A stretch of DNA of 64,000 bases from Dehalococcoidia bacterium. Its GTDB lineage: Bacteria; Chloroflexota; Dehalococcoidia; SHYM01. The position numbers and the translations under genes are program-made. This document shows positions 880 through 63,889 of the stretch, one piece after another (the first letter of the stretch is position 1; each line of letters opens with the position of its first letter). Below the pieces are notes generated by a model. It ran no database searches. It had not been told where the DNA came from and saw only the letters and a program-made list of their open reading frames with translations. Location of the stretch: positions 2,831 to 66,830 of the forward strand of contig SHYM01000001.1 of assembly GCA_009692805.1 (NCBI GenBank). Direction: 5' to 3'.

Positions 880-925
880 CGCCGAGCCGCAGCGGGCTCG
901 ATTGGTCCTGACCGGCTTGGGCGAG

Positions 926-1066
926 CTTTGCACAAAAAAGTCTCGTTCCTTCGAGCTGGCTCTCCCCTGAAGATGCCATCGACCATCCCCCTTACAAAAG
1001 GGAGAGAAAGGGGGCCACCCCCTTACGCCCCCGGCAGATCCCGAGCATCGGGACTCTGCACTCCCT
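926..1066. repeat. MITE-like intergenic repeat, copy A (TTGCAC-AAAAG end module, CCATCGACCATCCCCC box, GGCAGATCCCGAGCATCGGGACTCTGCACTCC hairpin)
   Basis: The same modules recur at 2284, 35222, 39103, 43688 and 48662. It sits in a non-coding gap after the crotonase gene. Confidence 0.7.
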
Positions 1067-1127
1067 CCTTTGCCGGTAAGATGCCCCGTTTGTACAAAGG
1101 AACCGTGACTCAACGATAGGAGGGGTC

Positions 1128-2198: not shown

Positions 2199-2283
2199 TA
2201 TCCGGGGCTCTCCGCGGCGCTACCTAGTTGCTTATGGCGCTCAGCCTACGGGGCATGCCACGGCACTCTTTCGCGTCCCGCAA

Positions 2284-2414
2284 ACTTCGCACAACAAGTC
2301 TCATTTTCTTCGAGCTGGCTCTCCCCAGGAAGAGAGTGTAAGGAGAAGGAGAGAATCCCGAGCGTCGGGACTTCGACCCCCGGCAGATCCCGAGCATCGG
2401 GACTCTGCACTCCC
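2284..2414. repeat. MITE-like intergenic repeat, copy B (hairpin module duplicated)
   Basis: TTCGCACAACAAGTCTC...GAGCTGGCTCTCCCC...ATCCCGAGCGTCGGGACT...GGCAGATCCCGAGCATCGGGACTCTGCACTCC. It abuts the 3' end of the ABM monooxygenase gene. Confidence 0.7.
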
Positions 2415-2432
2415 TCTATTGCCGGGGGATTC

Positions 2433-2744
2433 CTAGCGCCAGGCCTCATCCGGAGGATAGACGTTGCGGCCAATGTGCCTTGCGGCGGGGCCGGCGAACC
2501 AGTCCCGCACCGTGTCCCGCCACTTGAGGTAGTGCGGCGCCTGCTGATGCGCCTGGAAGGCGGCCTCGTCGCGATACGCCTCGTATAGGTGGACAAGATT
2601 GGGGTCGGCCGCGTCCTGGAGCACATCGAAGCGCAGGCACCCCGGCTCGTCTTGATTAGAGCCCCGCGCATCCCCCAGCATCGCCTCCATAAACTGCTCC
2701 CGGCGCTCGGGCTTGACGTGGAGGGTGACCATGAGGACGTACAT
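2433..2744 (-). CDS. antibiotic-biosynthesis monooxygenase (ABM) family protein
   Basis: MYVLMVTLHVKPERREQFMEAM... is a typical ABM/YgiN N-terminus. A GGGAGGT RBS lies 6 nt upstream of the ATG at 2744. The longer track ORF starts inside the upstream gap. Confidence 0.7.
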   Translation of the reverse strand: MYVLMVTLHVKPERREQFMEAMLGDARGSNQDEPGCLRFDVLQDAADPNLVHLYEAYRDEAAFQAHQQAPHYLKWRDTVRDWFAGPAARHIGRNVYPPDEAWR

Positions 2745-3119: not shown

Positions 3120-4328
3120 ATGCCGGGGCCGCTAGCTGACCTCACGATCCTCGACCTAACGGAATACATCGCCGGTCCCTACGCGACCAAGCTGCTGGCG
3201 GACTACGGCGCCAACGTCATCAAGCTGGAACGGCCGGGCGGCGACCCCTCGCGAGGACTGGGGCCGTTCAAGGGGAACAGCAAGCACGCCGAGCGCAGCG
3301 GCACCTTCTTCTATTTCAATACCAACAAGCGCTCCCTCGTGCTGGACCTGCGCGCGCCTGAGGGCCGGCAAGTCTTCCTGCGGCTGCTGGACGGGGCGGA
3401 TATCGTGGTCGAGAGCTTCCGGCCGGGCGTCCTGGACCGCCTGGGCGTGGGCTGGGACGCTGTCCATGCCCGCAAGCCGTCCGCCCCCCTGGTATCCATC
3501 ACCAACTTCGGGCAGACTGGCCCTTACCGGGAGTTCCGGGCCTCGGAGCTGGTGCTGTTCGGCTTCGCCGGGGAGATGTACTCCATGGGGGGTCAAGACC
3601 GCGCGCCGGTCAAGATGTACGGCACGGCTGCCCAGGTGGAATCGGGCTCCGCCGCGGCGAGCGCCATCCTGGGGGCGGCGATGGTCGGCAAGTGGCAAGG
3701 AGTGGGCCAGCGAGTGGACTTCTCCCTGGCGGAGAGTCACCTATTAGGAGTGGACCGCCGCCACGCCACCGTCATCGGCTATCAGTTCTCCGGTCGCAAG
3801 ACTCAGCGCCGGGCGGGCGCCGGCGTCGCCCTGGGCGGAGTCTACCCCTGCGCCGATGGCTACGTGGAACTGGCAGGCGGCGCCTGGTTCGACCGCGTCA
3901 TAGAGATGCTGGGAAACCCCGCGTGGCTGCGCGACCCCAAGTGGCTGGACCCGGTCGCGCAGACCGACCCCGCCCTGATCGAGGAGTTCGAGGGCCACTT
4001 TTACGAGTGGCTGCTGGCGCGCACCCGTCGAGAAGTCTTGAGGGAGGCGCTGCAGGCGCGGGCGATCTGCGCGCCCATGTTCACCGTGGACGAGCTCTTC
4101 GACGACCCTCACTTCATCGCCCGCGGGCTCTGGGCCCGGGCGGAGCATGCCGAGCTGGGCGCCTTCGCCATCCCTGGCAGGCCCTTCCTCATGAGCGATT
4201 CGCCCTGGGAACTGCGGCGTCCGGCGCCGCTCCTGGGCCAGCATACGGCCGAGGTGCTGCGCGAGGCCGGCTACAGCGAGGGTGAGGTCCAGGCCCTGGC
4301 CCAGCGGCATATAGTGGAGGTGCGGTGA
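3120..4328 (+). CDS. CoA transferase family III (CaiB/BaiF) protein
   Basis: N-terminus LADLTILDLTEYIAGPYATKLLADYGANVIKLERP. Confidence 0.85.
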   Translation: MPGPLADLTILDLTEYIAGPYATKLLADYGANVIKLERPGGDPSRGLGPFKGNSKHAERSGTFFYFNTNKRSLVLDLRAPEGRQVFLRLLDGADIVVESFRPGVLDRLGVGWDAVHARKPSAPLVSITNFGQTGPYREFRASELVLFGFAGEMYSMGGQDRAPVKMYGTAAQVESGSAAASAILGAAMVGKWQGVGQRVDFSLAESHLLGVDRRHATVIGYQFSGRKTQRRAGAGVALGGVYPCADGYVELAGGAWFDRVIEMLGNPAWLRDPKWLDPVAQTDPALIEEFEGHFYEWLLARTRREVLREALQARAICAPMFTVDELFDDPHFIARGLWARAEHAELGAFAIPGRPFLMSDSPWELRRPAPLLGQHTAEVLREAGYSEGEVQALAQRHIVEVR

Positions 4329-5656
4329 TGGCCCACCTGCCGCTGCACGGCATCAGGGTCGTCGACCTGACTGGCGTCTGGGCCGGCACCTTCGCCACCA
4401 TGCTCCTAGCCGACCTAGGAGCAGAGGTCATCAAGCAGGAGAACCCCTACCTCATGCAGCCCAACACCCGCGGCCGGCGCGCTCACCTGACCAAAGCGAT
4501 GCTCCAGGGTGGCACGGCCTGGGGCTCCGGTTACCCGAACAATGAGCCGGGGCCGCGCCCCTGGAACTACTGTCCGACCTTCGTGCAGCTCTACCGCAAC
4601 AAGCGCAGCTTCACCGTGGACATCCGCGGGCCTGAGGGCATGGACATCCTGCGGCGGCTGATTGCAAAGTCCGACGTGGTCATGGAGAATAGCGCCCCCG
4701 GCGTCATGGAGAAGCTGGGCATTACCTACGAATGGCTCCAAGGCATTAAGCCAGACATCATCTTTGCCCGCATGCCGGCCTACGGCTCCAGCGGGCCCTA
4801 CCGGGATGGGCGCGCCATGGGCGTGCACCTGGAGAGCATGATCGGGCATGCGCTCCTGCGCGGCTACCCGGACCTCGACCCCTCCAACAGCACCGCCACC
4901 TTCGTCGCCGACTACACGGCGGGCACCCAGGCGGCCCTGGCGGTCATGATGGCGCTCTGGCACCGCCGGCAGACCAACCGCGGGCAGTTGATCGAGCTGT
5001 CCCAGGCGGAGAGCGCCGTGCCGATGATGGCGCAGGCCCTGATGGACTGGTCGCTAAATCAGCATCTGCAATCCGCCATCGGCAACCGCTCCCTCGACGG
5101 CGCCGCCCCCTGCGGCGTCTATCCCTGCCGCTCGCCGGGCACACCAGAAGACAGCGGCGACCACTGGATCGCCATCACCGTCGGCAGCGACCGCCAGTGG
5201 GAGGCGCTGCGCAAGCTTATGGGCGACCCGGAGTGGGCGCGCTCGGGGGATCTGGTCACGGCGGAGGCCCGGGCCCAGCGCCAAGACCTGCTCGACGCCA
5301 GGCTGGCGGAGTGGACGGCTGACTGCGACGACTACGAGCTGATGCACCGGCTTCAGGCCGCCGGCATCGCCGCCGCCCCCGTCCTGGAGGCCTCCCGCGC
5401 GCTCGATGACCCCCAGGTCCTGGCGCGGGACCTCTATCAACCGCAGCGCATCTACGACGATGTGGGCGTCTACAAGTACATGACGCCCTTCTACCGCTTC
5501 TCCGAGACGCCCACGGGCATCCACAAGCCCCCGGTGGCTTTCGGGGAGGACAACGAATACGTCTACAAAGAGGTCATCGGGGTCAGCGACGGGGAGTACG
5601 CGCGCCTGCGGGCCGCCGGGCATATACGCATGGACTTCGACGAATCGGTGCCCTGA
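4325..5656 (+). CDS. CoA transferase family III (CaiB/BaiF) protein, paralog
   Basis: GIRVVDLTGVWAGTFATMLLADLGAEVIKQE. GTG/ATG start overlaps the upstream stop (TGATG). Confidence 0.85.
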   Translation: MMAHLPLHGIRVVDLTGVWAGTFATMLLADLGAEVIKQENPYLMQPNTRGRRAHLTKAMLQGGTAWGSGYPNNEPGPRPWNYCPTFVQLYRNKRSFTVDIRGPEGMDILRRLIAKSDVVMENSAPGVMEKLGITYEWLQGIKPDIIFARMPAYGSSGPYRDGRAMGVHLESMIGHALLRGYPDLDPSNSTATFVADYTAGTQAALAVMMALWHRRQTNRGQLIELSQAESAVPMMAQALMDWSLNQHLQSAIGNRSLDGAAPCGVYPCRSPGTPEDSGDHWIAITVGSDRQWEALRKLMGDPEWARSGDLVTAEARAQRQDLLDARLAEWTADCDDYELMHRLQAAGIAAAPVLEASRALDDPQVLARDLYQPQRIYDDVGVYKYMTPFYRFSETPTGIHKPPVAFGEDNEYVYKEVIGVSDGEYARLRAAGHIRMDFDESVP

Positions 5657-33152: not shown

Positions 33153-34046
33153 ATGGCCAGGGTCCTGGTGAACGGAGTGAAGCTGAACGTAGCGGTGGGG
33201 GGCAGCGGCCCACCCTTGGTGGCTCTCCACGGTTTCACCGGGGACATGGATACCTGGCACAGCTTCGCCCGCGCGGCGGCCCGCCACCAGCACACCGTGG
33301 TCCGCATTGACCTGCTGGGCCACGGCCGCTCCGACTGTCCCTCCGACCCCCAGCGCTACTCCATGGAACGCTGCGCCGAGGACCTGATAGGGGTGCTGGA
33401 CGTCCTCGGCATCGGGCGCGCCGCCTGGATGGGCTACTCCCTCGGGGGCCGCATCGCCTTGGGCGTGGCCCTCGCCGCCCCGGAGCGCTGTCTGGCGCTG
33501 GTGCTGGAGGGGGGCTCCCCCGGCCTGGCCGACCAGGCTGAGCGGGCCCAGAGGTTGGCCAGCGATGAGGGGCTGGCCCGGCTCCTGGAGGAGAGGGGCG
33601 TCCCCAGCTTTGTCGAGGTGTGGGAGGCCCAGCCCCTCTGGGCCAGCCAGCGGCGCCTCCCTCCCGCGGAGCGCCTGCGGCTGCGGGCCCAGAGGCTACG
33701 CAACAGGCCCGCGGGGCTGGCGGGCAGCCTGCGGGGCATCGGCACCGGCGCCCAGCCCTCTTATCACCACCGCCTGAGTGGCTTGCCTCTGCCAACGCTC
33801 ATGGTAGTCGGGGAGGAGGACTCGAAGTTCCGCGAGATCGCCCAGGCGATGTGTCGCCTGATCACGGCCAGCCAGCTGGCCGTGATCCCCGAGGCCGGCC
33901 ACACCACCCACCTGGAGCAGCCGGAGCGCTTTAACCGCGCGGTCCTGGACTTCTTGCAGCGGCACCGGGGAACCCCAGGGGCCATCTCGGCGGCTGGGGC
34001 GAGCGCCGGTCACGCCGCCACCGCACCCCCCACGTCCGTACCGTAG
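33153..34046 (+). CDS. menH: 2-succinyl-6-hydroxy-2,4-cyclohexadiene-1-carboxylate synthase (alpha/beta hydrolase)
   Basis: LVALHGFTGDMDTWH and the GYSLGGRIAL nucleophile elbow. The ATG is 3 nt after the menD stop. The long track ORF is a read-through frame. Confidence 0.75.
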   Translation: MARVLVNGVKLNVAVGGSGPPLVALHGFTGDMDTWHSFARAAARHQHTVVRIDLLGHGRSDCPSDPQRYSMERCAEDLIGVLDVLGIGRAAWMGYSLGGRIALGVALAAPERCLALVLEGGSPGLADQAERAQRLASDEGLARLLEERGVPSFVEVWEAQPLWASQRRLPPAERLRLRAQRLRNRPAGLAGSLRGIGTGAQPSYHHRLSGLPLPTLMVVGEEDSKFREIAQAMCRLITASQLAVIPEAGHTTHLEQPERFNRAVLDFLQRHRGTPGAISAAGASAGHAATAPPTSVP

Positions 34047-35197
34047 CGGGCCAGCGCGGCCTCATCCAGGGCCACGCCGAGGCCCGGACCGCGGGGAACA
34101 GTCAGCAACCCCGCCACCGGCAGCAGCGGCTGCGCCAGCAGGTCGCTCTCCAGCAGCAACCCGGTGGCGAGGCCGCTGGCGGGCCCCCCGGGACGCCCGG
34201 CCATCGCTAGGTGTAGCGAGGCCGCAAGCCCTATGCCGGTCTCCAGGGACGAGGTGACCACGGCTGGCAGGCCCCGCTCCTCCGCCAGCCGCAGGATCGC
34301 CAGGGACTCCACCAGGCCACCCACCCTGGCGGCCTTGACGACCAGCACGTCCGCGGCAGCGGCTTGCAGGACCAGCCGGGCGTCGGCCAGGCTGCCCACC
34401 GCCTCGTCGGCGGCGATGGGCACGCTCACGGAGCGCCGCACCTGGGCCAAGCCTAGCAAGTCAGCGCCCGCGACCGGTTGCTCCACGTACTCCAGTTGAA
34501 ACCGCTGGAGGAGAGCGATGGCCTCAATCGCCTCCCCCACGCTCCAGGCCTGGTTGGCGTCCACCCGTAGCTTCACCGTCGGGCCCACGGCGGAGCGGAC
34601 CGCCTCCAGAATAGCGACGTCCAGGTCGCGATCATGGCCAGCGAGCTTGAGCTTCAGGCTTCTAAACCCCTGCGCCACGGCCTCGGCGGCGAGCCTGGCC
34701 GCCTCAGGCGGCGACTCCGAGCCGATGAGGGCGTTGACCGCCAGGGGCCGCGGCTCGGCGCCCAGGAGGGCGGCCAGCGGACGCCCTAGCGCCTTGCCGG
34801 TAGCATTATAGGAGGCGGTCTCCAGCGCGAAGCGCAGGGCCTTGGCCGCGGCCTCGTTCTCCAGGGTGGCGCTGGCCACGGGCGCCAGAGTGGCGCGGGC
34901 CACTGCTGGGACCTCCGCGAGGGGCAGGCCCAGGAACCGCGGGGCGCATTCGCGCAGCAGAGCCGCCAGGCCCCGCAGGCCGGCGGCGCCGCCGGCGGTC
35001 TCGATCTCCGCGGCCTCTCCCAGGCCCGTGATACCGTCCTGGGTATGGAGGCTGACCAGCAAGCTGTAGCGTGCCGCGGCCTGGCCCTGAGCGGTGACGT
35101 AGCGGCGCCTAAATGGCACCCGCATGCCGCGCCATTCGACCTTGGCCACCAGGGTGGATGCCTGCGGGGCTCGCTTATGACTGGCCTCACCATGCAT
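34010..35197 (-). CDS. menC: o-succinylbenzoate synthase (enolase superfamily)
   Basis: KLRVDANQAW...EYVEQP...IAADE metal-ligand motifs. Start placed at MHGEASHK. The GTG at 35230 falls inside a repeat element. Convergent with menH, overlapping its 3' end. Confidence 0.75.
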   Translation of the reverse strand: MHGEASHKRAPQASTLVAKVEWRGMRVPFRRRYVTAQGQAAARYSLLVSLHTQDGITGLGEAAEIETAGGAAGLRGLAALLRECAPRFLGLPLAEVPAVARATLAPVASATLENEAAAKALRFALETASYNATGKALGRPLAALLGAEPRPLAVNALIGSESPPEAARLAAEAVAQGFRSLKLKLAGHDRDLDVAILEAVRSAVGPTVKLRVDANQAWSVGEAIEAIALLQRFQLEYVEQPVAGADLLGLAQVRRSVSVPIAADEAVGSLADARLVLQAAAADVLVVKAARVGGLVESLAILRLAEERGLPAVVTSSLETGIGLAASLHLAMAGRPGGPASGLATGLLLESDLLAQPLLPVAGLLTVPRGPGLGVALDEAALARYGTDVGGAVAA

Positions 35198-35221
35198 AGG
35201 GCCATTGTACGGCCCTCGCCA

Positions 35222-35470
35222 GCTTTGCACTGAAAGCGGCGTTCAGAGAGTCTCTGCGCCCTTCAAGAGCCATCGACCATCCCCCTTGTATCTTATCTAG
35301 TGACGGGGCAGACCCAATCCCCCGGTTCCTGGCCTCGCCAGCCTTATACAAGAATGGCATCCTGCCAGAAACGAGGGAGAGCAGAGTCCCGATGCTCGGG
35401 ATCTGCCGGGGGATGGTCGAGGGCATCCTCAGGGAGAGCCAGGCCGAAGAAAGCGAGACTTTCGTGCAAG
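35222..35470. repeat. MITE-like intergenic repeat, copy C (with terminal inverted repeats TTGCAC.GAAAG)
   Basis: Left end CTTTGCACTGAAAGCGGCG; right end CGAGACTTTCGTGCAAGG, its reverse complement. Inside are the CCATCGACCATCCCCC box and the GCAGAGTCCCGATGCTCGGGATCTGCCGGGGG hairpin, inverted relative to copies A and B. Confidence 0.7.
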
Positions 35471-35648
35471 GCCACCCTAGCCCATTACCATCACGGGCGA
35501 TGGGTCTGCGCAGTCGTTGTTGACAAGGTACCCGACGCCGTTATTATTGGTGCGCGGCGCGCGTTGCCCCTATGTTTTTATTCCGAGCTGAGGCCAGCGT
35601 CCCACCGCGGCCCCCGGCAGGCCCTCGTCAGCGAAGGAGATTGCACCT

Positions 35649-37046
35649 ATGCCCAAGAAGCCACGGAGCTTAGGCGAGCTACGCAAAAGCGGCTACAAGC
35701 CCAACACCGTCAAGTACGAGCTCCGGCGCAACTTGATCCGCAAGATCAAGGCCCGGGAGGAGATCTTCCCGGGGATCGTCGGCTACGATGAAACCGTCAT
35801 CCCCCATATGCTGAACGCCATCTTGTCCGGGCAGGACATGATCCTCCTAGGCGAGCGGGGACAGGCCAAGAGCCGGTTGGCGCGCAGCCTGGTGAACCTC
35901 CTGGACGACGAGACGCCCATCATCAGCGGCTCCGAGCTCAACGACGATCCCTTCCGGCCCCTTAGCAAGTTCGCCCGCGAGCAAGTGGAGGCCCACGGCG
36001 ATGAGACGGAGATCGACTGGCTTCCCAAGGAGCAACGCTACTCGGAGAAGCTGGCCACTCCGGATATAACCATCGCCGACCTCATAGGCGAGGTGGACCC
36101 GATCCGGGTGGCGGAAGGGCGCTATCTCTCCGACGAGCTGACGATCCACTATGGACTGATACCCCGGACCAATCGAGGGATCTTCGCCATCAATGAGCTC
36201 CCCGACCTGGCGGAGCGCATCCAGGTCGGGCTCTTCAACCTCATGGAGGAGCGGGACATTCAGATCCGCGGGTACCGTATCCGGCTACCCCTGGACGTCT
36301 ACATCGTGGCCAGCGCCAACCCCGAGGACTACACCAACCGCGGGCGGATCATCACCCCGCTGAAGGACCGCTACGGGTCACAGGTCCGCACCCACTACCC
36401 CAAGAGCCTCGACCTGGAGATGGAGATCATGGAGCGGGAGCACAAAGTCCTGGGCGACGGCCCTCCCAAGGTGTGGGTGCCCCCCTTCATGAAGGAGGTC
36501 ATCGCCGAGCTCACGGCCCTGGCCCGCAAGAGCGCCGACATCAACCAGCGCTCGGGCGTCAGCGTGCGCATCTCCATCGCCAACTATGAGAATATCGTGA
36601 GCAACGCCGTGCGCCGGGCCGTCCTCGCTGGGGAGGAGGAGGCGGTGCCACGGATTAGCGACCTGCCCTACGTGCTGCCCTCCACCACCGGCAAGATCGA
36701 GCTGGAGAGCGTGGAGGAGGGCCGCGAGGAGCACCTCATCACCCAGCTGCTTCAGCGGGCCGTGCTCAACACCTTCAACCGCTACTTCGCCGGCCGGCCC
36801 TTCGAAGAGCTGGTGGCCCAGTTCGATGCCGGTGCCACTGCCGAGACCTCGGAGATAAAGCCCGCCACCGACTACGTGAAGCTCCTCAAGAAGCTGCCCG
36901 CCTTCGAGGCCGGCTTCAAGGAGCTGGGCATCCAGGAAACACCCGCCGCCAAGGCCTCCGGCATGGAGTTCATCCTGGAGGGGCTCCACCTGAACCGGAG
37001 GCTCAACAAGGAGAAGGTGGAGGGGGTCGTTCGCTACCGGGGGTAG
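35649..37046 (+). CDS. AAA+ ATPase, Mg-chelatase ChlI/BchI-like family
   Basis: Walker A (LLGERGQAKS), Walker B (IFAINELPDL) and an arginine-finger region, with a GAAGGAG RBS. Confidence 0.7.
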   Translation: MPKKPRSLGELRKSGYKPNTVKYELRRNLIRKIKAREEIFPGIVGYDETVIPHMLNAILSGQDMILLGERGQAKSRLARSLVNLLDDETPIISGSELNDDPFRPLSKFAREQVEAHGDETEIDWLPKEQRYSEKLATPDITIADLIGEVDPIRVAEGRYLSDELTIHYGLIPRTNRGIFAINELPDLAERIQVGLFNLMEERDIQIRGYRIRLPLDVYIVASANPEDYTNRGRIITPLKDRYGSQVRTHYPKSLDLEMEIMEREHKVLGDGPPKVWVPPFMKEVIAELTALARKSADINQRSGVSVRISIANYENIVSNAVRRAVLAGEEEAVPRISDLPYVLPSTTGKIELESVEEGREEHLITQLLQRAVLNTFNRYFAGRPFEELVAQFDAGATAETSEIKPATDYVKLLKKLPAFEAGFKELGIQETPAAKASGMEFILEGLHLNRRLNKEKVEGVVRYRG

Positions 37047-39087: not shown

Positions 39088-39102
39088 TTTCAGGCGCACC
39101 GG

Positions 39103-39286
39103 CTTTTGCACGAAAAGTCAGTCAGTGTAGCGGGAGTGCAGAGGGCAGGCAGCCCTTTGTCGGAGTCATGGGTGTCCCCTCAACATCTTTCCCTCCCCCT
39201 TCGAGCCTTGCTCGAAAAGTCCGGCAAATCTGGCGAATCTCCTAGAGGAGAGTGCAGAGTCCCGATGCTCGGGATCTGCCGGGGGG
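39103..39286. repeat. MITE-like intergenic repeat, copy D
   Basis: TTTTGCACGAAAAGTCAG...GGGAGTGCAGAGGGCAGGC...CTTGCTCGAAAAGTCCGG...GAGAGTGCAGAGTCCCGATGCTCGGGATCTGCCGGGGGG. Confidence 0.65.
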
Positions 39287-39456
39287 ATGATCGTAACCCA
39301 GATCAAAGACTGGGTTGGTGTAGAACCACTTTTGGAGCAAGCCCGTAGACGGGGGATAGGATCGTCCTCCCAGCCACTCCTTTGCCAAGCAGGCGCCGGT
39401 GGGATAAACTAGCGCGAGTCGAAACGGCAGGATCCAAAAGTCGAGAGGAGAATGTC

Positions 39457-39948
39457 ATGCCCAACCCAGTAGTCCGCTTCGAGATCGGGGCCAAGGACGC
39501 CAAGAAGGCGCAGAAGTTCTACGCCGACCTCTTCGGCTGGCACGTGGACGCCAACAACCCCATGAACTACGGCGTGGTGGACACCCACGCCAAGGGAGGC
39601 ATCAACGGCGGTATCACCGCCATCCAGAAAGGCATGCCCGCGCTGATCATCTATGTGGAGGTGGACGACCTGTCCGCCTATCTCAAGAAGGCGGAGAAGT
39701 TGGGCGGCAAGACCCTCATGCCGCCGACGGTGATACCGAACATGGTGACCTTCGCCCTGTTCGCCGATCCCCAGGGCACCACCATCGGCATGATCAAGAG
39801 CGATCACCCGTCCGCTGAGGCGAAGCCGAAAGCTGCGGCGCCGGCGCGCAAGGCTGCTGCAAGCAGCCGGACTACGAAGGCTGCTGCAAGCAGCCGGACT
39901 ACGAAGGCTGCTGCAAGCAGCCGGACTACGAAGGCAGCCAAGCGCTAG
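39457..39948 (+). CDS. VOC (glyoxalase/bleomycin-resistance fold) family protein with C-terminal KAAASSRTT x3 repeat tail
   Basis: VVRFEIGAKDAKKAQKFYADLFGWHVD..., with a GAGGAG RBS 7 nt before the ATG at 39457. Confidence 0.7.
   Translation: MPNPVVRFEIGAKDAKKAQKFYADLFGWHVDANNPMNYGVVDTHAKGGINGGITAIQKGMPALIIYVEVDDLSAYLKKAEKLGGKTLMPPTVIPNMVTFALFADPQGTTIGMIKSDHPSAEAKPKAAAPARKAAASSRTTKAAASSRTTKAAASSRTTKAAKR
39850..39930 (+). repeat. perfect 3 x 27-bp tandem repeat (AAGGCTGCTGCAAGCAGCCGGACTACG) inside VOC gene 3' end
   Basis: Three identical contiguous units encode KAAASSRTT each. Confidence 0.85.
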
Positions 39949-43623: not shown

Positions 43624-43687
43624 CACGTTTGGGGGGAGGCCTGCGAGATGGCAGCCTCATCAGGCGGGGGAACTGGGGGTGTCCCCG

Positions 43688-43850
43688 GCTTTGCACTAAA
43701 ACTCTCGTTTTCTTCGATCTGGCTCTCCTGTGAGGATGTCCACGACCATCCCCCTGGCCCCCTCCCTAGCCAGGAAGGGGGTAGTTTGAAAGGGAGAGAA
43801 GGGGGACACCCCCTTCGACCCCCGGCAGAGGGATTATCCCTCTGCACTCC
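43688..43850. repeat. MITE-like intergenic repeat, copy E (subtype 2 hairpin GGCAGAGGGATTATCCCTCTGCACTCC)
   Basis: GCTTTGCACTAAAACTCTCG...CGACCATCCCCC...CTAGCCAGGAAGGGGGTAG...GGGAGAGAAGGGGGACACCCCCTTCGACCCCCGGCAG.... It fills the gap between convergent mfd and prfB. Confidence 0.7.
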
Positions 43851-43852
43851 CC

Positions 43853-44957
43853 CTACCCCGTCGGGCCCACGGTACTCTTCAAGTAGGCCGTCATGAGGGC
43901 GTCCAGGTCGCCGTCCAGCACCGCCTGCGGGTCGCCGGTCTCATAGCCGGTGCGCAGGTCCTTCACCATCCGGTAAGGATGGAGCACGTAGCTGCGGATC
44001 TGGTTGCCCCAGCCGGATCCCACGTGGGCGCCCTTCAGGCGCAGCCGCTCCGTCTCTCGCCTCTGGATCTCCTGCTCGACGAGGCGGGCGCGCAGGATGC
44101 GCAGCGCCGTCTCCTTGTTCTGCTGGAGGGAGCGCTCGTTCTGGCAAGCGACCACCAGGCCCGAAGGGAGGTGGCGCAGCCGCACCGCGGTGGAGTTTTT
44201 CTGCACGTTCTGGCCCCCGGCGCCACTGGCCCGGAAGGTCTCTATCTCCACGTCGTCGGGCGAGATGACGACCTCCACCTCGGGCCCCGCCTCGGGCCAC
44301 ACCTCCACCAGGGCAAAGGAGGTGTGGCGGGCGTGGGCCGAATCGTAGGGGGACAAACGGACGAGGCGGTGGACCCCCCGCTCGGATTTAAGGTAGCCGT
44401 AGGCGTAGGGGCCCGCGATGGAGGCTACGGCGCTCTTGATGCCGGCCTCCTCGCCCGGGGAGCTCTCGATGACCTCCGCCTGGAATTGGCGGCGCTCCGC
44501 CCAGCGCAGGAACATCCGCAGGAGCATCTGGGCCCAGTCCTGGGCCTCCGTGCCGCCCGCGCCGGCGTGGACGGCCAGGATGGCGCCCCGGTTATCGTAC
44601 TCGCCTCCCAGGGTCAGGCGAAACTCCTGCTCGTCCAGCCGGCGCTCCAGCCGCTCCAGGCTGGTGCCTAGCTCCGCCTCCAGGGAGGAATCGCCCTCGG
44701 CGGCCGTCATCGCCGCCAGCTCGGACAGCTCGGCGGCCTGGCCTTCAAGGGAGCGCCAGAGGTTGACCTCTTCCTTCAGCGCCGCCAGGCGCTTCATGGC
44801 GGCCTGCGCCCGCTCCTGGTCACTCCAGAACTCGGGGTGTCCCGCCTCCGCCTCTAGACGGGTGGCCTCCACATCCTTGGCAGCCAGGTCAAAGACGCTC
44901 CTGGAAATGGGCGATGCGTTGCCGCAGCTCGGTCAGGCGGCCACCCAGATTTTCCAC
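43853..44957 (-). CDS. prfB: peptide chain release factor 2 (requires programmed +1 frameshift)
   Basis: Main ORF 43853-44872 carries the GGQ and SPF motifs. Upstream in the 0 frame, GTG at 44957 opens 22 codons ([22 protein letters not shown]) ending at CTT TGA C (44894-44888), the canonical RF2 shifty stop. Confidence 0.85.
44888..44894 (-). other. RF2 +1 programmed frameshift site CTT TGA C
   Basis: Read on the minus strand as GAG CGT CTT TGA CCT GGC. The downstream frame continues as [11 protein letters not shown]... Confidence 0.8.
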
Positions 44958-47914: not shown

Positions 47915-48667
47915 CTAGAAGCGGATCTCAATGCGGCGGAAGGCCTCCGCCAGAGGCACCCGCAGCGCCTTGCCGTTCTCGGCCAGACGCTCCTTCATCA
48001 TGCGCTCCATCTCCTCCCGCGGCCGGCGGCCGAAGCCCTGGCTTTTGTGCTGCAAAAGACTTTCGATCTTAAACTGGTAGGTCGTGCTCACATCCACGTA
48101 GAAGTTCGGGGTATCGGCACCCCAGAACAGCACCTCCCGCACCTTGTGGACTGACAGCCCTTGCGCCAGGTGCTCGGGGAAGCTGAGGCGGTCGCGGGCG
48201 TAGGGGAAACTGGCGTCGAGGGTCACCTGGCCAGACATGCGGTGGTCCCGGTGCTGCATATAACGGCGGTCGGGGTCGGTGCTGAGGGCGACCTCGGGGC
48301 GGTACTGACGGATCAGGCGCACCAACTCGCCCCGAAACTGGACGTCATCCTCCAGGCCGCCGTCGGGGTGGTCCAGAAAGACCACGTCCTGGATGCCCAG
48401 GACCTTAGCGGCGGCCAGCTGCTCCTCCCGGCGCAGGCCGGCCAGGCGCTCCGAGGTCATCTGGGGGTCCTCGGAACCCTTGTCGCCGTTGGTGCAAACG
48501 GCGAGGACCACCTGGCAGCCGTCGCGGGCCCAGCGGGCCAGGGTGGCTCCCGCCCCCACCTCGGCATCATCGGGGTGGGGGCTCACCGCCAGGGCCACGG
48601 CGGGCGTGGGCCGGCGCTCCTCCTGTCTCTGCTCGTTTTCTCGGTATTGCTGCGGTGAGCTGACCAT
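47915..48667 (-). CDS. PIG-L/LmbE-family N-acetylglucosaminyl deacetylase (MshB/BshB-like)
   Basis: VSPHPDDAEVGAGATLARWARDGCQVVLAVCTNGDKGSEDP. The ATG lies inside the CCATCGACCATC box of repeat copy F. The track ORF extension upstream is repeat-derived. Confidence 0.8.
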   Translation of the reverse strand: MVSSPQQYRENEQRQEERRPTPAVALAVSPHPDDAEVGAGATLARWARDGCQVVLAVCTNGDKGSEDPQMTSERLAGLRREEQLAAAKVLGIQDVVFLDHPDGGLEDDVQFRGELVRLIRQYRPEVALSTDPDRRYMQHRDHRMSGQVTLDASFPYARDRLSFPEHLAQGLSVHKVREVLFWGADTPNFYVDVSTTYQFKIESLLQHKSQGFGRRPREEMERMMKERLAENGKALRVPLAEAFRRIEIRF

Positions 48668-48905
48668 CGACCATCCCCCTGGCCCCCTTCCTAGCCAGGA
48701 AGGGGGTAGTCTGAAAGGGAGAGAAGGGGGACACCCCCTTCGACCCCCGGCAGAGGGACATTCCCTCTGCACTCCGTCCCGCCGCAGGCGGGGCGGCAGG
48801 ATGCCCTTTTAGTGCAAAGCTGGTACACCCCATTCGCCCCCCGGCCCTTCGACCCGCCTGCGGCGGGCTCAGGGCAGGCTCCGGGACCCCTCTGCACTCC
48901 GTCCC
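48662..48905. repeat. MITE-like intergenic repeat, copy F plus an adjacent partial second copy (subtype 2 hairpin; inverted TTTTAGTGCAAAGC end)
   Basis: GACCATCGACCATCCCCC...CTAGCCAGGAAGGGGGTAG...GGGAGAGAAGGGGGACACCCCCTTCGACCCCCGGCAGAGGGACATTCCCTCTGCACTCC...TTTTAGTGCAAAGCTGG, then CCCTTCGACCC...CTCTGCACTCCGTCCC. Confidence 0.7.
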
Positions 48906-48940
48906 AAACCCCTTGTTACGCTGATTTACGACGGCAGATG

Positions 48941-49639
48941 CTAGCGCCTAATCTCTAGGCGCTTGAAGGACTCCGCCAGAGGCACCCGGAGCTTCTTGCC
49001 ATTCTCCTCGCAGCGCTCTCGCACCCACTTGGCTATGGTCTCCTCCGGCCGCTCCCCCATCTGGCTCTTGTGGGCCAGGAGGGACTGTACCTTGGTGGAG
49101 TAGCTCTCCGTCACGTCCACGAAGTGGTCGGGCTCGTCGGAGGCAAACAGCAGCACCTCGCCCACCTTCCAGGGTTTGAGGCCCTGGCGCTCGTGCTCGG
49201 GGTAGATGAGACGGTCGCGGGCGTAGGGGTAAACGGCGTCCAGGGTGACCCGCCCGGCCATCCGGTGGTCCCGATGCCAGATGCCATTGCGATAGGGGCT
49301 GGAGGTGATGACCGTCTCCGGCTGGAACTGGCGGACGCAACGGACGACCTCCCGGCGGAACTCATGGGTATCCTCCAGGCCGCCATCGGGGAAGCCCAGG
49401 CAGACCAGCTCCTTCACCCCCAGGATGCGGCAGGCCTCGCGCTCCTCCGCCTCGCGGATGCGGGCCAGCTCCGGGCTGGTCAGCGTCGGGTCCTCGGAGC
49501 CCTTGTCGCCGTTGGTGCACATCACATAGACGACCTCGGCGCCCTGGGCGGCCCAGCGGGCGACGGTGCCGGAGCACCCGAACTCGGCATCATCGGGGTG
49601 GGCGAAGACCACCAGGACGCGAGCAGGCACCTTCTCCAT
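48941..49639 (-). CDS. PIG-L/LmbE-family deacetylase, tandem paralog
   Basis: VFAHPDDAEFGCSGTVARWAAQGAEVVYVMCTNGDKGSEDP. Confidence 0.8.
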   Translation of the reverse strand: MEKVPARVLVVFAHPDDAEFGCSGTVARWAAQGAEVVYVMCTNGDKGSEDPTLTSPELARIREAEEREACRILGVKELVCLGFPDGGLEDTHEFRREVVRCVRQFQPETVITSSPYRNGIWHRDHRMAGRVTLDAVYPYARDRLIYPEHERQGLKPWKVGEVLLFASDEPDHFVDVTESYSTKVQSLLAHKSQMGERPEETIAKWVRERCEENGKKLRVPLAESFKRLEIRR

Positions 49640-63412: not shown

Positions 63413-63431
63413 ACCGCGTGCTAACCGCACA

Positions 63432-63507
63432 GGAGCGTAGCTCAGTTGGTAGAGCAGCGGTCTCCAAAACCGCCGGTCCGGGGTTCGAATCCTCGCGCTC
63501 CTGCCAG
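63432..63507 (+). tRNA. tRNA-Trp (CCA)
   Basis: AGGAGCG acceptor, anticodon loop CTCCAAA, GGTTCGAATCC, genomic CCA. Confidence 0.85.
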
Positions 63508-63526
63508 GCGCTATAGCAGTTGGCCT

Positions 63527-63614
63527 GCCGAGGTGGTGGAACTAGGTAGACACGCTGTCTTGAGGGGGCAGTGGGGGTAACCCCATAGGAGTTCAAATCT
63601 CCTCCTCGGCACCA
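63527..63614 (+). tRNA. tRNA-Leu (GAG)
   Basis: GCCGAGG acceptor, anticodon loop TTGAGGG, long variable arm, GTTCAAATC T-loop, discriminator A then CCA. Confidence 0.8.
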
Positions 63615-63731
63615 GCAGCGATGTTACAATTCAAGGGGTCATGGTGGGAGCTGCCCGGGAATTGGGCAGCGGCCTGAGTACAACCTATCACTTGCTTTAC
63701 TCCAGGGTCGAAAGACCCTCTGGGATACGGG

Positions 63732-63806
63732 GCGGAAGTGGCTCAGCGGTAGAGCATCTCCTTGCCAAGGAGAGGGTCGCGGGTTCAAATCCCGTCTTCC
63801 GCTCCA
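63732..63806 (+). tRNA. tRNA-Gly (GCC)
   Basis: GCGGAAG acceptor, anticodon loop CTTGCCAA, GGTTCAAATCC, CCA. Confidence 0.85.
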
Positions 63807-63813
63807 ATTTCAT

Positions 63814-63889
63814 GGCGACGTAGCCAAGCGGTTAAGGCGGGGGTCTGCAAAACCCCTATGCAGCGGTTCGAATCCGCTCGTCGCCTCCA
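63814..63889 (+). tRNA. tRNA-Cys (GCA)
   Basis: GGCGACG acceptor, anticodon loop TCTGCAAAA, GGTTCGAATCC, CCA. Confidence 0.85.

Follow-up and report, generated by a model that had tools for sequence, protein, structure and literature searches.

A probable tail-to-tail pair of MITE-like repeats upstream of a probable menC gene in a Dehalococcoidia contig

Genomic context

The DNA analysed here, called the window throughout, is a 64-kb stretch of high-GC DNA from one contig. Copy C of a dispersed repeat lies in it between two divergent genes, a probable menC and an AAA/chelatase-like gene. The features flanking the element, all outside it, are:

34010-35197, minus strand (to 35230 if the GTG start is used): enolase-superfamily gene, probable menC, beside menD/menH
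35520-35547, plus strand: sigma-70-like promoter TTGACA-16-TATTAT of the AAA/chelatase-like gene
from 35649, divergent from menC: AAA/chelatase-like gene

The repeat pair described below accounts for the long intergenic region between the two genes. A promoter scan gave a single sigma-70-like promoter in the region, the one at 35520-35547, which lies 46 nt beyond the element. The closest homologue of the AAA/chelatase-like gene is 85% identical, sits on a 1.5-kb non-syntenic contig (L109) and has a similar upstream promoter (TTGACA..TATGAT) without the element. No empty site orthologous to copy C was found in the sequence collections searched. Copy C lies between both promoter regions, leaves the predicted promoter untouched and is probably neutral for expression.

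The longest menC ORF opens with a GTG at 35230 (35230-35228, minus strand), inside the left terminus of the left part of copy C. The initial annotation warned that extending the ORF into the repeat would misplace the menC start, and the warning is reasonable: alignments to solved homologues begin at residue 27-31 of the GTG-initiated ORF, so the ATG at 35197 is the likelier start. TACAAT lies six bases upstream of this ATG, from which we only infer a leaderless menC start. An over-extension of the same kind is seen at a PIG-L deacetylase gene (47915-48772, minus strand, 285 aa), whose longest ORF runs about 50 codons into copy F of the repeat (48650-48821). The tandem PIG-L paralogue at 48941-49639 is 232 aa long, with the domain beginning at residue 9 rather than at residue 61 as in the 47915-48772 ORF. 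At both menC and the PIG-L gene, the longest ORF enters the repeat and should be trimmed.

Elsewhere in the window, a perfect 27-nt tandem repeat at 39850-39935 (3.2 copies; AAGGCTGCTGCAAGCAGCCGGACTACG) runs in frame through the 3' end of a glyoxalase-domain ORF (39382-39948), giving KAAASSRTT repeats. Four tRNA genes (Trp, Leu, Gly, Cys) are clustered at 63431-63889, near the window end.

Repeat copies in the window

Copy C belongs to a small non-coding mobile repeat family of an ordinary kind, common in Dehalococcoidia. The window holds seven to eight copies or fragments at six intergenic sites, roughly one copy per 8-10 kb. In the 64 kb, seven matches with E<0.01 and one weak match were obtained with a covariance model of the family's hairpin cassette. 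Copies are 134-176 bp long and non-coding; all are intergenic, at most overlapping a stop codon, and they occur on either strand in co-directional, convergent and divergent intergenic regions. Besides the two parts of copy C, they are:

924-1099, plus strand: copy A, full or nearly full (nhmmer profile)
2283-2436, plus strand: copy B, full or nearly full (nhmmer profile)
about 39105-39190, minus strand: D1rev, a fragment (covariance model)
39344-39204, minus strand: copy D2rev, full or nearly full (nhmmer profile)
43632-43695: weak reversed cassette, a fragment (covariance model)
43687-43860, plus strand: copy E, full or nearly full (nhmmer profile)
48650-48821, plus strand: copy F, full or nearly full (nhmmer profile)

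The long form of the element consists of a terminus, a head, the box CCATCGACCATCCCCC, variable hairpins, hairpin 1, CCCCCGGCAGA-hairpin 2-TCTGCACTCC, about 25 nt and a terminus. In the short forms (D2rev and Crev, the right part of copy C) the box is joined directly to CCCCCGG. Copies E and F share 95% identity over 108 nt, a sign of recent copying.

Family ends have the form GCYTTGCAC..AAA. With up to three mismatches allowed, the window has nine occurrences of the terminus motif GCTTTGCACNAAAAG, where 2.2 are expected, and all nine are at element ends. The inverted repeats of individual copies are short and imperfect (11/13 in A, 9/14 in Crev, 13/14 in D2rev). The initial annotation had described A, D and F as single-ended and C as the sole copy with paired ends, and this has to be revised. 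Copy A has a right terminus at 1088-1100 that matches its own left end, compared by eye; copy D holds a complete copy at 39204-39344; and the end of copy F at 48806-48820 is a right terminus.

MITEs are recognised by small size (about 50-400 bp) without coding capacity, by terminal inverted repeats on individual copies and by many dispersed copies. The window copies are in this size range and non-coding, paired inverted ends occur on A, Crev, D2rev and two metagenomic members (L112 and L111), and the copies are dispersed over the six sites of this one contig.

Copy D (39100-39345) is a tandem of two family members, both on the minus strand. On its two sides D2rev has ..ATCCCCC GTCTACG and TCGAA GGGGGAG.., which gives the impression of an insertion in a CCCCC/GGGGG hairpin loop of D1rev. 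Under such a nested model, the putative D1 head to the left of D2rev showed no significant similarity to family heads. A solitary tail fragment, CCCTCTGCACTCCGTCCC, is found at 48863-48906, about 60 nt past the right end of copy F, and two GC-rich hairpins (CCCGCCGCAGGCGGG and CCCGCCTGCGGCGGG) lie between the two.

Structure of copy C

We determined the structure of copy C from concordant blastn searches of each copy against the window, a MAFFT alignment and an nhmmer search with a profile made from full copies. Its parts are:

35221-35307, plus strand: Cleft, the 5' part of a family copy (left terminus, head, C-rich box); nhmmer profile 3-85, E=1e-3
35221-35236, plus strand: left terminus of Cleft, AGCTTTGCACTGAAAG
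35269-35285, plus strand: C-rich box of Cleft, GCCATCGACCATCCCCC, oriented as in copy A
35308-35339: unassigned spacer between Cleft and Crev, ending in GCCTCGC (35332-35338)
35340-35473, minus strand: Crev, a complete short-form copy of 134 bp; nhmmer profile 3-196, E=3e-32
35340-35352: right terminus of Crev, AGCCTTATACAAG as plus strand, 9/14 identical to its own left terminus by eye
35381-35406, minus strand: hairpin 2 of Crev, GCAGA-TCCCGA-GCA-TCGGGA-C-TCTGC on the minus strand
35408-35424, minus strand: C-rich box of Crev, reverse complement GCCCTCGACCATCCCCC
35455-35473, minus strand: left terminus of Crev, GGCCTTGCACGAAAGTCTC on the minus strand

Crev has the order left terminus, head, box joined straight to hairpin 2, tail and right terminus. 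It matches copy A at 82-84% over two segments (blastn) and contains a match to covariance model R1 (35373-35447, 23 bits). The counterpart of its right terminus is GTTTGTACAAAGG in copy A and TTTTAGTGCAAAGC in copy F. Cleft matches copy A 22-94 at 74% (blastn); no recognisable hairpin cassette and no right terminus were found in it. ORFs overlapping copy C are extensions of the flanking genes or have no coding-type composition.

The two terminus strings quoted for copy C by the initial annotation are both present (CTTTGCACTGAAAGCGGCG at 35223-35241 and CGAGACTTTCGTGCAAGG at 35454-35471), and they are inverted repeats, with 35222-35230 matching 35464-35472 at 8/9 positions. The inverted similarity spans about 65 nt (35221-35285 versus 35408-35473), with a local alignment score of 21 compared to 9.9 +/- 1.7 (maximum 17) in 1000 shuffles. 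The 266-nt region folds into a single long imperfect hairpin (-117 kcal/mol, z = -4.3). Given a complete inner copy and a partial copy to its left, however, we read copy C as two copies placed tail to tail. The left ends of Cleft and Crev both face outward, which produces the apparent terminal inverted repeats and the long 250-bp imperfect hairpin. The inverted ends are real, as claimed, and not due to chance, but they are two left ends of separate copies and not the ends of a single bona fide element.

The description of box and hairpin as inverted relative to copies A and B is correct for the hairpin at 35381-35406 and fails for the box. The CCATCGACCATCCCCC box at 35270-35285 lies on the same strand as its counterpart at 975-990 in copy A; only the hairpin and the second, reversed box at 35408-35424 are inverted. 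The box at 35270-35285 and the hairpin belong to different copies, Cleft and Crev.

One further arrangement was considered and rejected. In this nested model, Crev sits in the hairpin-2 loop of an outer element that resumes at 35501-35530, which would make the TTGACA -35 box MITE-derived. The right remainder resembled family tails no better than shuffled sequence did (p>=0.1), and the 85% homologue of the downstream gene has the -35 box without the element.

Insertion history

A metagenome scan with the window-specific hairpin matched three loci, two of which had identical sequence. The full-length metagenomic members have paired inverted ends and are flanked by perfect 7-bp direct repeats, GTGTCCC/GTGTCCC for L112 (631-846) and CCTGAGG/CCTGAGG for L111 (9828-10028). 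The rule derived from these two members sets the element start two bases outside GCYTTGCAC. Applied unchanged to copy C, it gives a 6/7 match, and a match this good or better has a probability of 0.003 at a fixed offset in the window:

35213-35219: flanking 7-mer CCCTCGC, candidate target-site duplication
35475-35481: flanking 7-mer CCCTAGC, candidate target-site duplication, 6/7 identical to 35213-35219

A third version of the 7-mer is the GCCTCGC at the internal junction (35332-35338). For Crev alone, the flanking duplication is 5/7. With flanks compared by hand, the same rule gives 3/7 for copy A and none for D2rev, and a wider search around these two copies also gave none. Of the short direct duplications that were sought, then, an imperfect candidate is present around copy C and none is seen at A or D2rev.

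The alternation of 7-mer, Cleft, 7-mer, Crev, 7-mer suggests that two copies inserted at a single 7-bp target to form copy C, although Cleft is without its right terminus. Taken together, the right-terminus-less Cleft and the internal 7-mer are fully fitted by neither one composite insertion nor two clean ones. It is unlikely, in our judgement, that 35220-35474 was instead inserted in one piece as a single MITE with long inverted repeats, using two left-type ends. The significantly inverted outer arms, the folding as one long hairpin and the better duplication at the outer flanks (6/7, versus 5/7 for the inner copy) are what such an element would show, but the inner 134 bp are already a complete member with left and right termini, and the left arm is a head fragment only. 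One insertion also leaves the 7-mer at the internal junction unexplained. The inverted-pair form occurs at no other locus, and wherever two cassettes lie close together, in relatives or in copy D, they have the same orientation.

Related elements in other genomes

Several Dehalococcoidia genomes carry a sister subfamily of 150-190-bp elements that contain the cassette and have 16-bp terminal inverted repeats (GAGACCTTTGCGTAAC/GTTACGCAAAGGTCTC). These are flanked by 4-6-bp duplications, such as CTTGCG (L020), GCAGAC (L063), and CTATG and GTCTG (L041). A 1208-bp element on a Dehalococcoidia chromosome (L055 3667-4874; OZ244741.1) has the same 16-bp ends. Its 338-aa ORF contains DUF772 and DDE_Tnp_1 domains, which identifies it as an IS5-family transposase. 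Homologues of this IS in other genomes (L113-L126) are 60-84% identical, 1193-1235 bp long and have the same ends. Some Dehalococcoidia lineages have an identifiable IS5-family partner.

Many copies of the L055-type IS and MITE lie in the loops of CCCCC..GGGGG hairpins. In L055 itself (3600-4950), one unit of a tandem 52-nt repeat (CTCTCTCCCGTCTGCGGGGGAGAGTTAGAGAGGGGGCATTCCCGCGTCAGTC) carries the IS in its loop (GTCTGC), and the intact 52-nt units on both sides of the interrupted one are paralogous empty sites. The IS homologues in L115, L116, L121 and L124 are also in C-run/G-run hairpin loops.

The internal architectures of the window family and the IS5-linked MITE are clearly homologous, while the window termini have only a CTTTGC(A) core in common with the IS5-type repeat GAGACCTTTGCRTAAC. 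A tblastn search of the window with the L055 transposase gave no match, and neither the window nor any locus retrieved held a transposase or IS with GCYTTGCAC termini. What lies between pairs of GCYTTGCAC ends 812-2011 bp apart in the retrieved loci is either ordinary genes or sequence without a long ORF. Judging from the sister subfamily, the transposase for the window's subfamily is probably also of the IS5 family.

The cassette occurs with other ends as well, between GTAACAGTTCAGATT ends with a perfect 8-bp duplication (CTCTCTTC) in L057 and between GCCTATCCAACAAC ends in L100. A 145-bp element in L110 (1998-2142) has ends like those of the window family (GCCTTGCACAAAAAG/CTTTTTGTGCAAAGC) and flanks ACCTTCCCCCC/ACCTCCCCCC; its interior is unrelated and contains no cassette. 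Tandem arrays of modules without terminal inverted repeats are frequent in relatives, which indicates that recombination or slippage also multiplies these modules, besides transposition. The CGACCATCCCCC subfamily, for example, is arrayed in this way, in units of about 170 bp that have no repeats at their ends, in L060 (6500-6750), L082, L021 and L099.

On balance, we favour the view that copy C is a complete minus-strand copy and a plus-strand 5' half set tail to tail, and regard a non-autonomous DNA transposon as the most likely identity of the family. Its members would be cut and pasted by a DDE transposase, provided in trans, that recognises their GCYTTGCAC..AAA ends and leaves a duplication of about 7 bp in the window's subfamily. 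MITE membership is well supported for the family and incompletely for copy C. The MITE interpretation of the initial annotation is supported at the level of the family, by inverted ends, non-coding and dispersed copies, duplications in relatives and the IS5-type sister subfamily, and does not hold for copy C as one element.

More widely, uncultured Dehalococcoidia carry an abundant, undescribed MITE superfamily. Literature searches on MITEs and REPs in Chloroflexi or Dehalococcoidia gave no description of the window's repeat family, and literature searches with family sequence strings returned primer coincidences only. Repeats of this kind break up MAG assemblies and can mislead gene callers.

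Hairpin cassette

The cassette consists of hairpin 1, GGGGGACACCCCC, then 3-4 nt, then CCCCCGGCAGA-hairpin 2-TCTGCACTCC. We scanned 185,579 species genomes with the pattern CCCCCGGCAGA-N8-20-TCTGCACTCC and obtained at least 108 loci. Among the matches listed, most are from MAGs of Dehalococcoidia or other Chloroflexota, representing many species; those outside Chloroflexota are from Siccirubricoccus phaeus (an isolate; five loci), Bilophila wadsworthia (one) and Candidatus Onthenecus (one). The 21 flank bases CCCCCGGCAGA/TCTGCACTCC are fixed by the search pattern and are invariant by construction. Hairpin 1, which is not part of the pattern, precedes nearly every match listed, and the two hairpins are always in one order and one orientation.

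The loci outside Chloroflexota (L007, L032, L067, L094 and L095 in Siccirubricoccus phaeus; L065 in Bilophila wadsworthia; L047 in Candidatus Onthenecus, a chicken-gut MAG) have the same 21 conserved bases around hairpin 2, after a hairpin-1 analogue, GGGGGCTCCGCCCCC. In Siccirubricoccus phaeus, an alphaproteobacterium, the cassette makes up the first units of longer GC-rich hairpin arrays without terminal inverted repeats. One of these arrays directly follows a tRNA gene. In the commonest Dehalococcoidia subfamily (L003, L016, L018, L022, L063 and many more), a C-rich box, CCCACCCACCCGCCC, lies about 25-45 nt upstream of the cassette. Its four C3 tracts with single-base spacers are a textbook G-quadruplex / i-motif sequence on the two strands.

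A covariance model of both hairpins matched 131 copies in 100 sources. In the alignment fitted to this model, 93.8% of stem cells are paired, double changes occur in 12 of the 17 pairs, and 227 cells have double changes compared to 70 in shuffles. Sliding the stems out of register collapses the paired fraction to 50-64%. Stem mismatches show no wobble asymmetry (37 G:T/T:G, 41 A:C/C:A). Relative to neighbouring genes, as called by a crude GC3-based prediction, the cassette shows no strand bias (17 ++, 27 --, 27 +-, 10 -+), with 27 convergent contexts to 10 divergent. Since there is neither wobble asymmetry nor strand bias, the cassette behaves as a DNA-level palindrome or a structure required on both strands, and not as a one-strand RNA. 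It may serve as a structural element, as a binding site for a protein or as a barrier to transcription in both directions.

The transposon ends are less well conserved than this double hairpin, which is common to several element types and even phyla, unlike what is expected of a passive MITE interior. The cassette is found inside MITEs with at least three unrelated end types (GAGACCTTTGCGTAAC, GTAACAGTTCAGATT with the 8-bp duplication, and GCYTTGCAC), and is kept with compensatory changes in both stems at more than 100 loci in dozens of Chloroflexota species. We give some credence, though well short of a preference, to the cassette being an independently selected DNA module and not MITE filling. 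As such a module it might be recognised by a conserved protein of the host or the transposon, as a binding site or a structural signal. Alternatively, it might serve as a landing pad for the IS5-family elements that target hairpin loops and occur alongside it; these MITEs would then spread their own future target sites.

The same palindromes raise the question of whether the family is a REP/BIME-like mosaic, spread by a tyrosine (RAYT) transposase or by recombination and slippage instead of a DDE transposase, with the GCYTTGCAC ends merely one more module. Its interchangeable heads, boxes and hairpins, its tandem arrays without terminal inverted repeats, its covarying DNA-level palindromes without strand asymmetry, the Siccirubricoccus phaeus hairpin arrays and the enrichment between convergent genes all resemble such mosaics. 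We nevertheless find this improbable, as relatives have a clear structure of terminal inverted repeats and duplications and a matching IS5-family IS exists. The hairpin flanks are CCCCCGGCAGA/TCTGCACTCC (fixed by the search pattern) and not a GTAG or CGTC tag (PMC3733652), and no such tag stood beside either cassette hairpin in the sequences compared. The hairpins also keep one fixed order and do not form inverted doublets: no inverted cassette-bearing doublet was seen, and the only inverted pair is copy C, whose left part has no cassette.

A structured regulatory RNA, acting as leader or terminator for menC or the AAA gene, is largely refuted and very improbable: it would fit the strong predicted folding, the covarying hairpins and the position in a regulatory intergenic region, but the same sequence lies in all orientations beside genes that are unrelated, shows neither wobble asymmetry nor a U-tract after the hairpins and matches nothing in Rfam, permissive thresholds included, and a promoter like the predicted one stands before the 85% homologue of the AAA gene without the element. 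Rfam 15 returned only tRNAs for the whole window at the gathering threshold, nothing at E<=1 on 35100-35650 and nothing at E<=0.1 on eight related loci. No intrinsic terminator is seen at the cassette, where the hairpins are followed by CACTCC and not by T-runs; a terminator scan of 35100-35700 gave two weak terminator-like sites, neither of them at the cassette hairpin.

Comparison with known systems

REP/BIME elements of enterobacteria and pseudomonads, like the window family, are GC-rich extragenic palindromes arranged in module mosaics with a preference for convergent genes (PMC1525189; PMC2817692). REPs are single palindromes of 20-40 nt, often in inverted doublets and linked to RAYT; most carry a GTAG or CGTC tag, which marks two REP superfamilies (PMC3733652). 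Neither the tag nor the doublets are seen in the window family. Another likeness is that, in relatives of the window family, IS insert into hairpins. IS1397 inserts in the loop of a palindromic unit. REP-targeting IS are known from five families, IS5 included (PMC1525189).

Pneumococcal BOX, RUP and SPRITE clusters (PMC10969869) are also made of small, modular, hairpin-forming repeats that are bunched and mutually inserted. They belong to a different phylum, are AT-rich and follow a different module logic, and SPRITE has a terminator-like hairpin with a U-tract that the window family is without (PMC10969869).

A close general match is to the bacterial MITEs that are mobilised in trans by DDE insertion sequences, such as Correia/NEMIS, ERIC and RUP (PMC10969869). 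Like them, the window family has non-coding elements of about 100-300 bp with terminal inverted repeats and, in full-length relatives, short flanking duplications; the copies are numerous and intergenic, are predicted to form strong secondary structure, and cluster beside or inside one another. It differs in that its sequence is unrelated to any named MITE family, its subfamily's inverted repeats are short (about 10-14 nt) and imperfect with no partner IS found, and its most conserved part is the internal two-hairpin cassette and not the ends.

The IS5-linked MITE derivative shares with the window copies the C-rich box, hairpin 1 (GGGGGACACCCCC), the following CCCCCGGCAGA-hairpin 2-TCTGCACTCC and the CTTTGC in the termini. 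That derivative has a well-conserved 16-nt terminal repeat (GAGACCTTTGCGTAAC), makes 4-6-bp duplications and inserts in CCCCC..GGGGG hairpin loops, whereas the window copies have GCYTTGCAC..AAA ends, candidate duplications of about 7 bp and no evident hairpin-loop targeting. The window family is an undescribed sequence, probably within the known class of MITEs.
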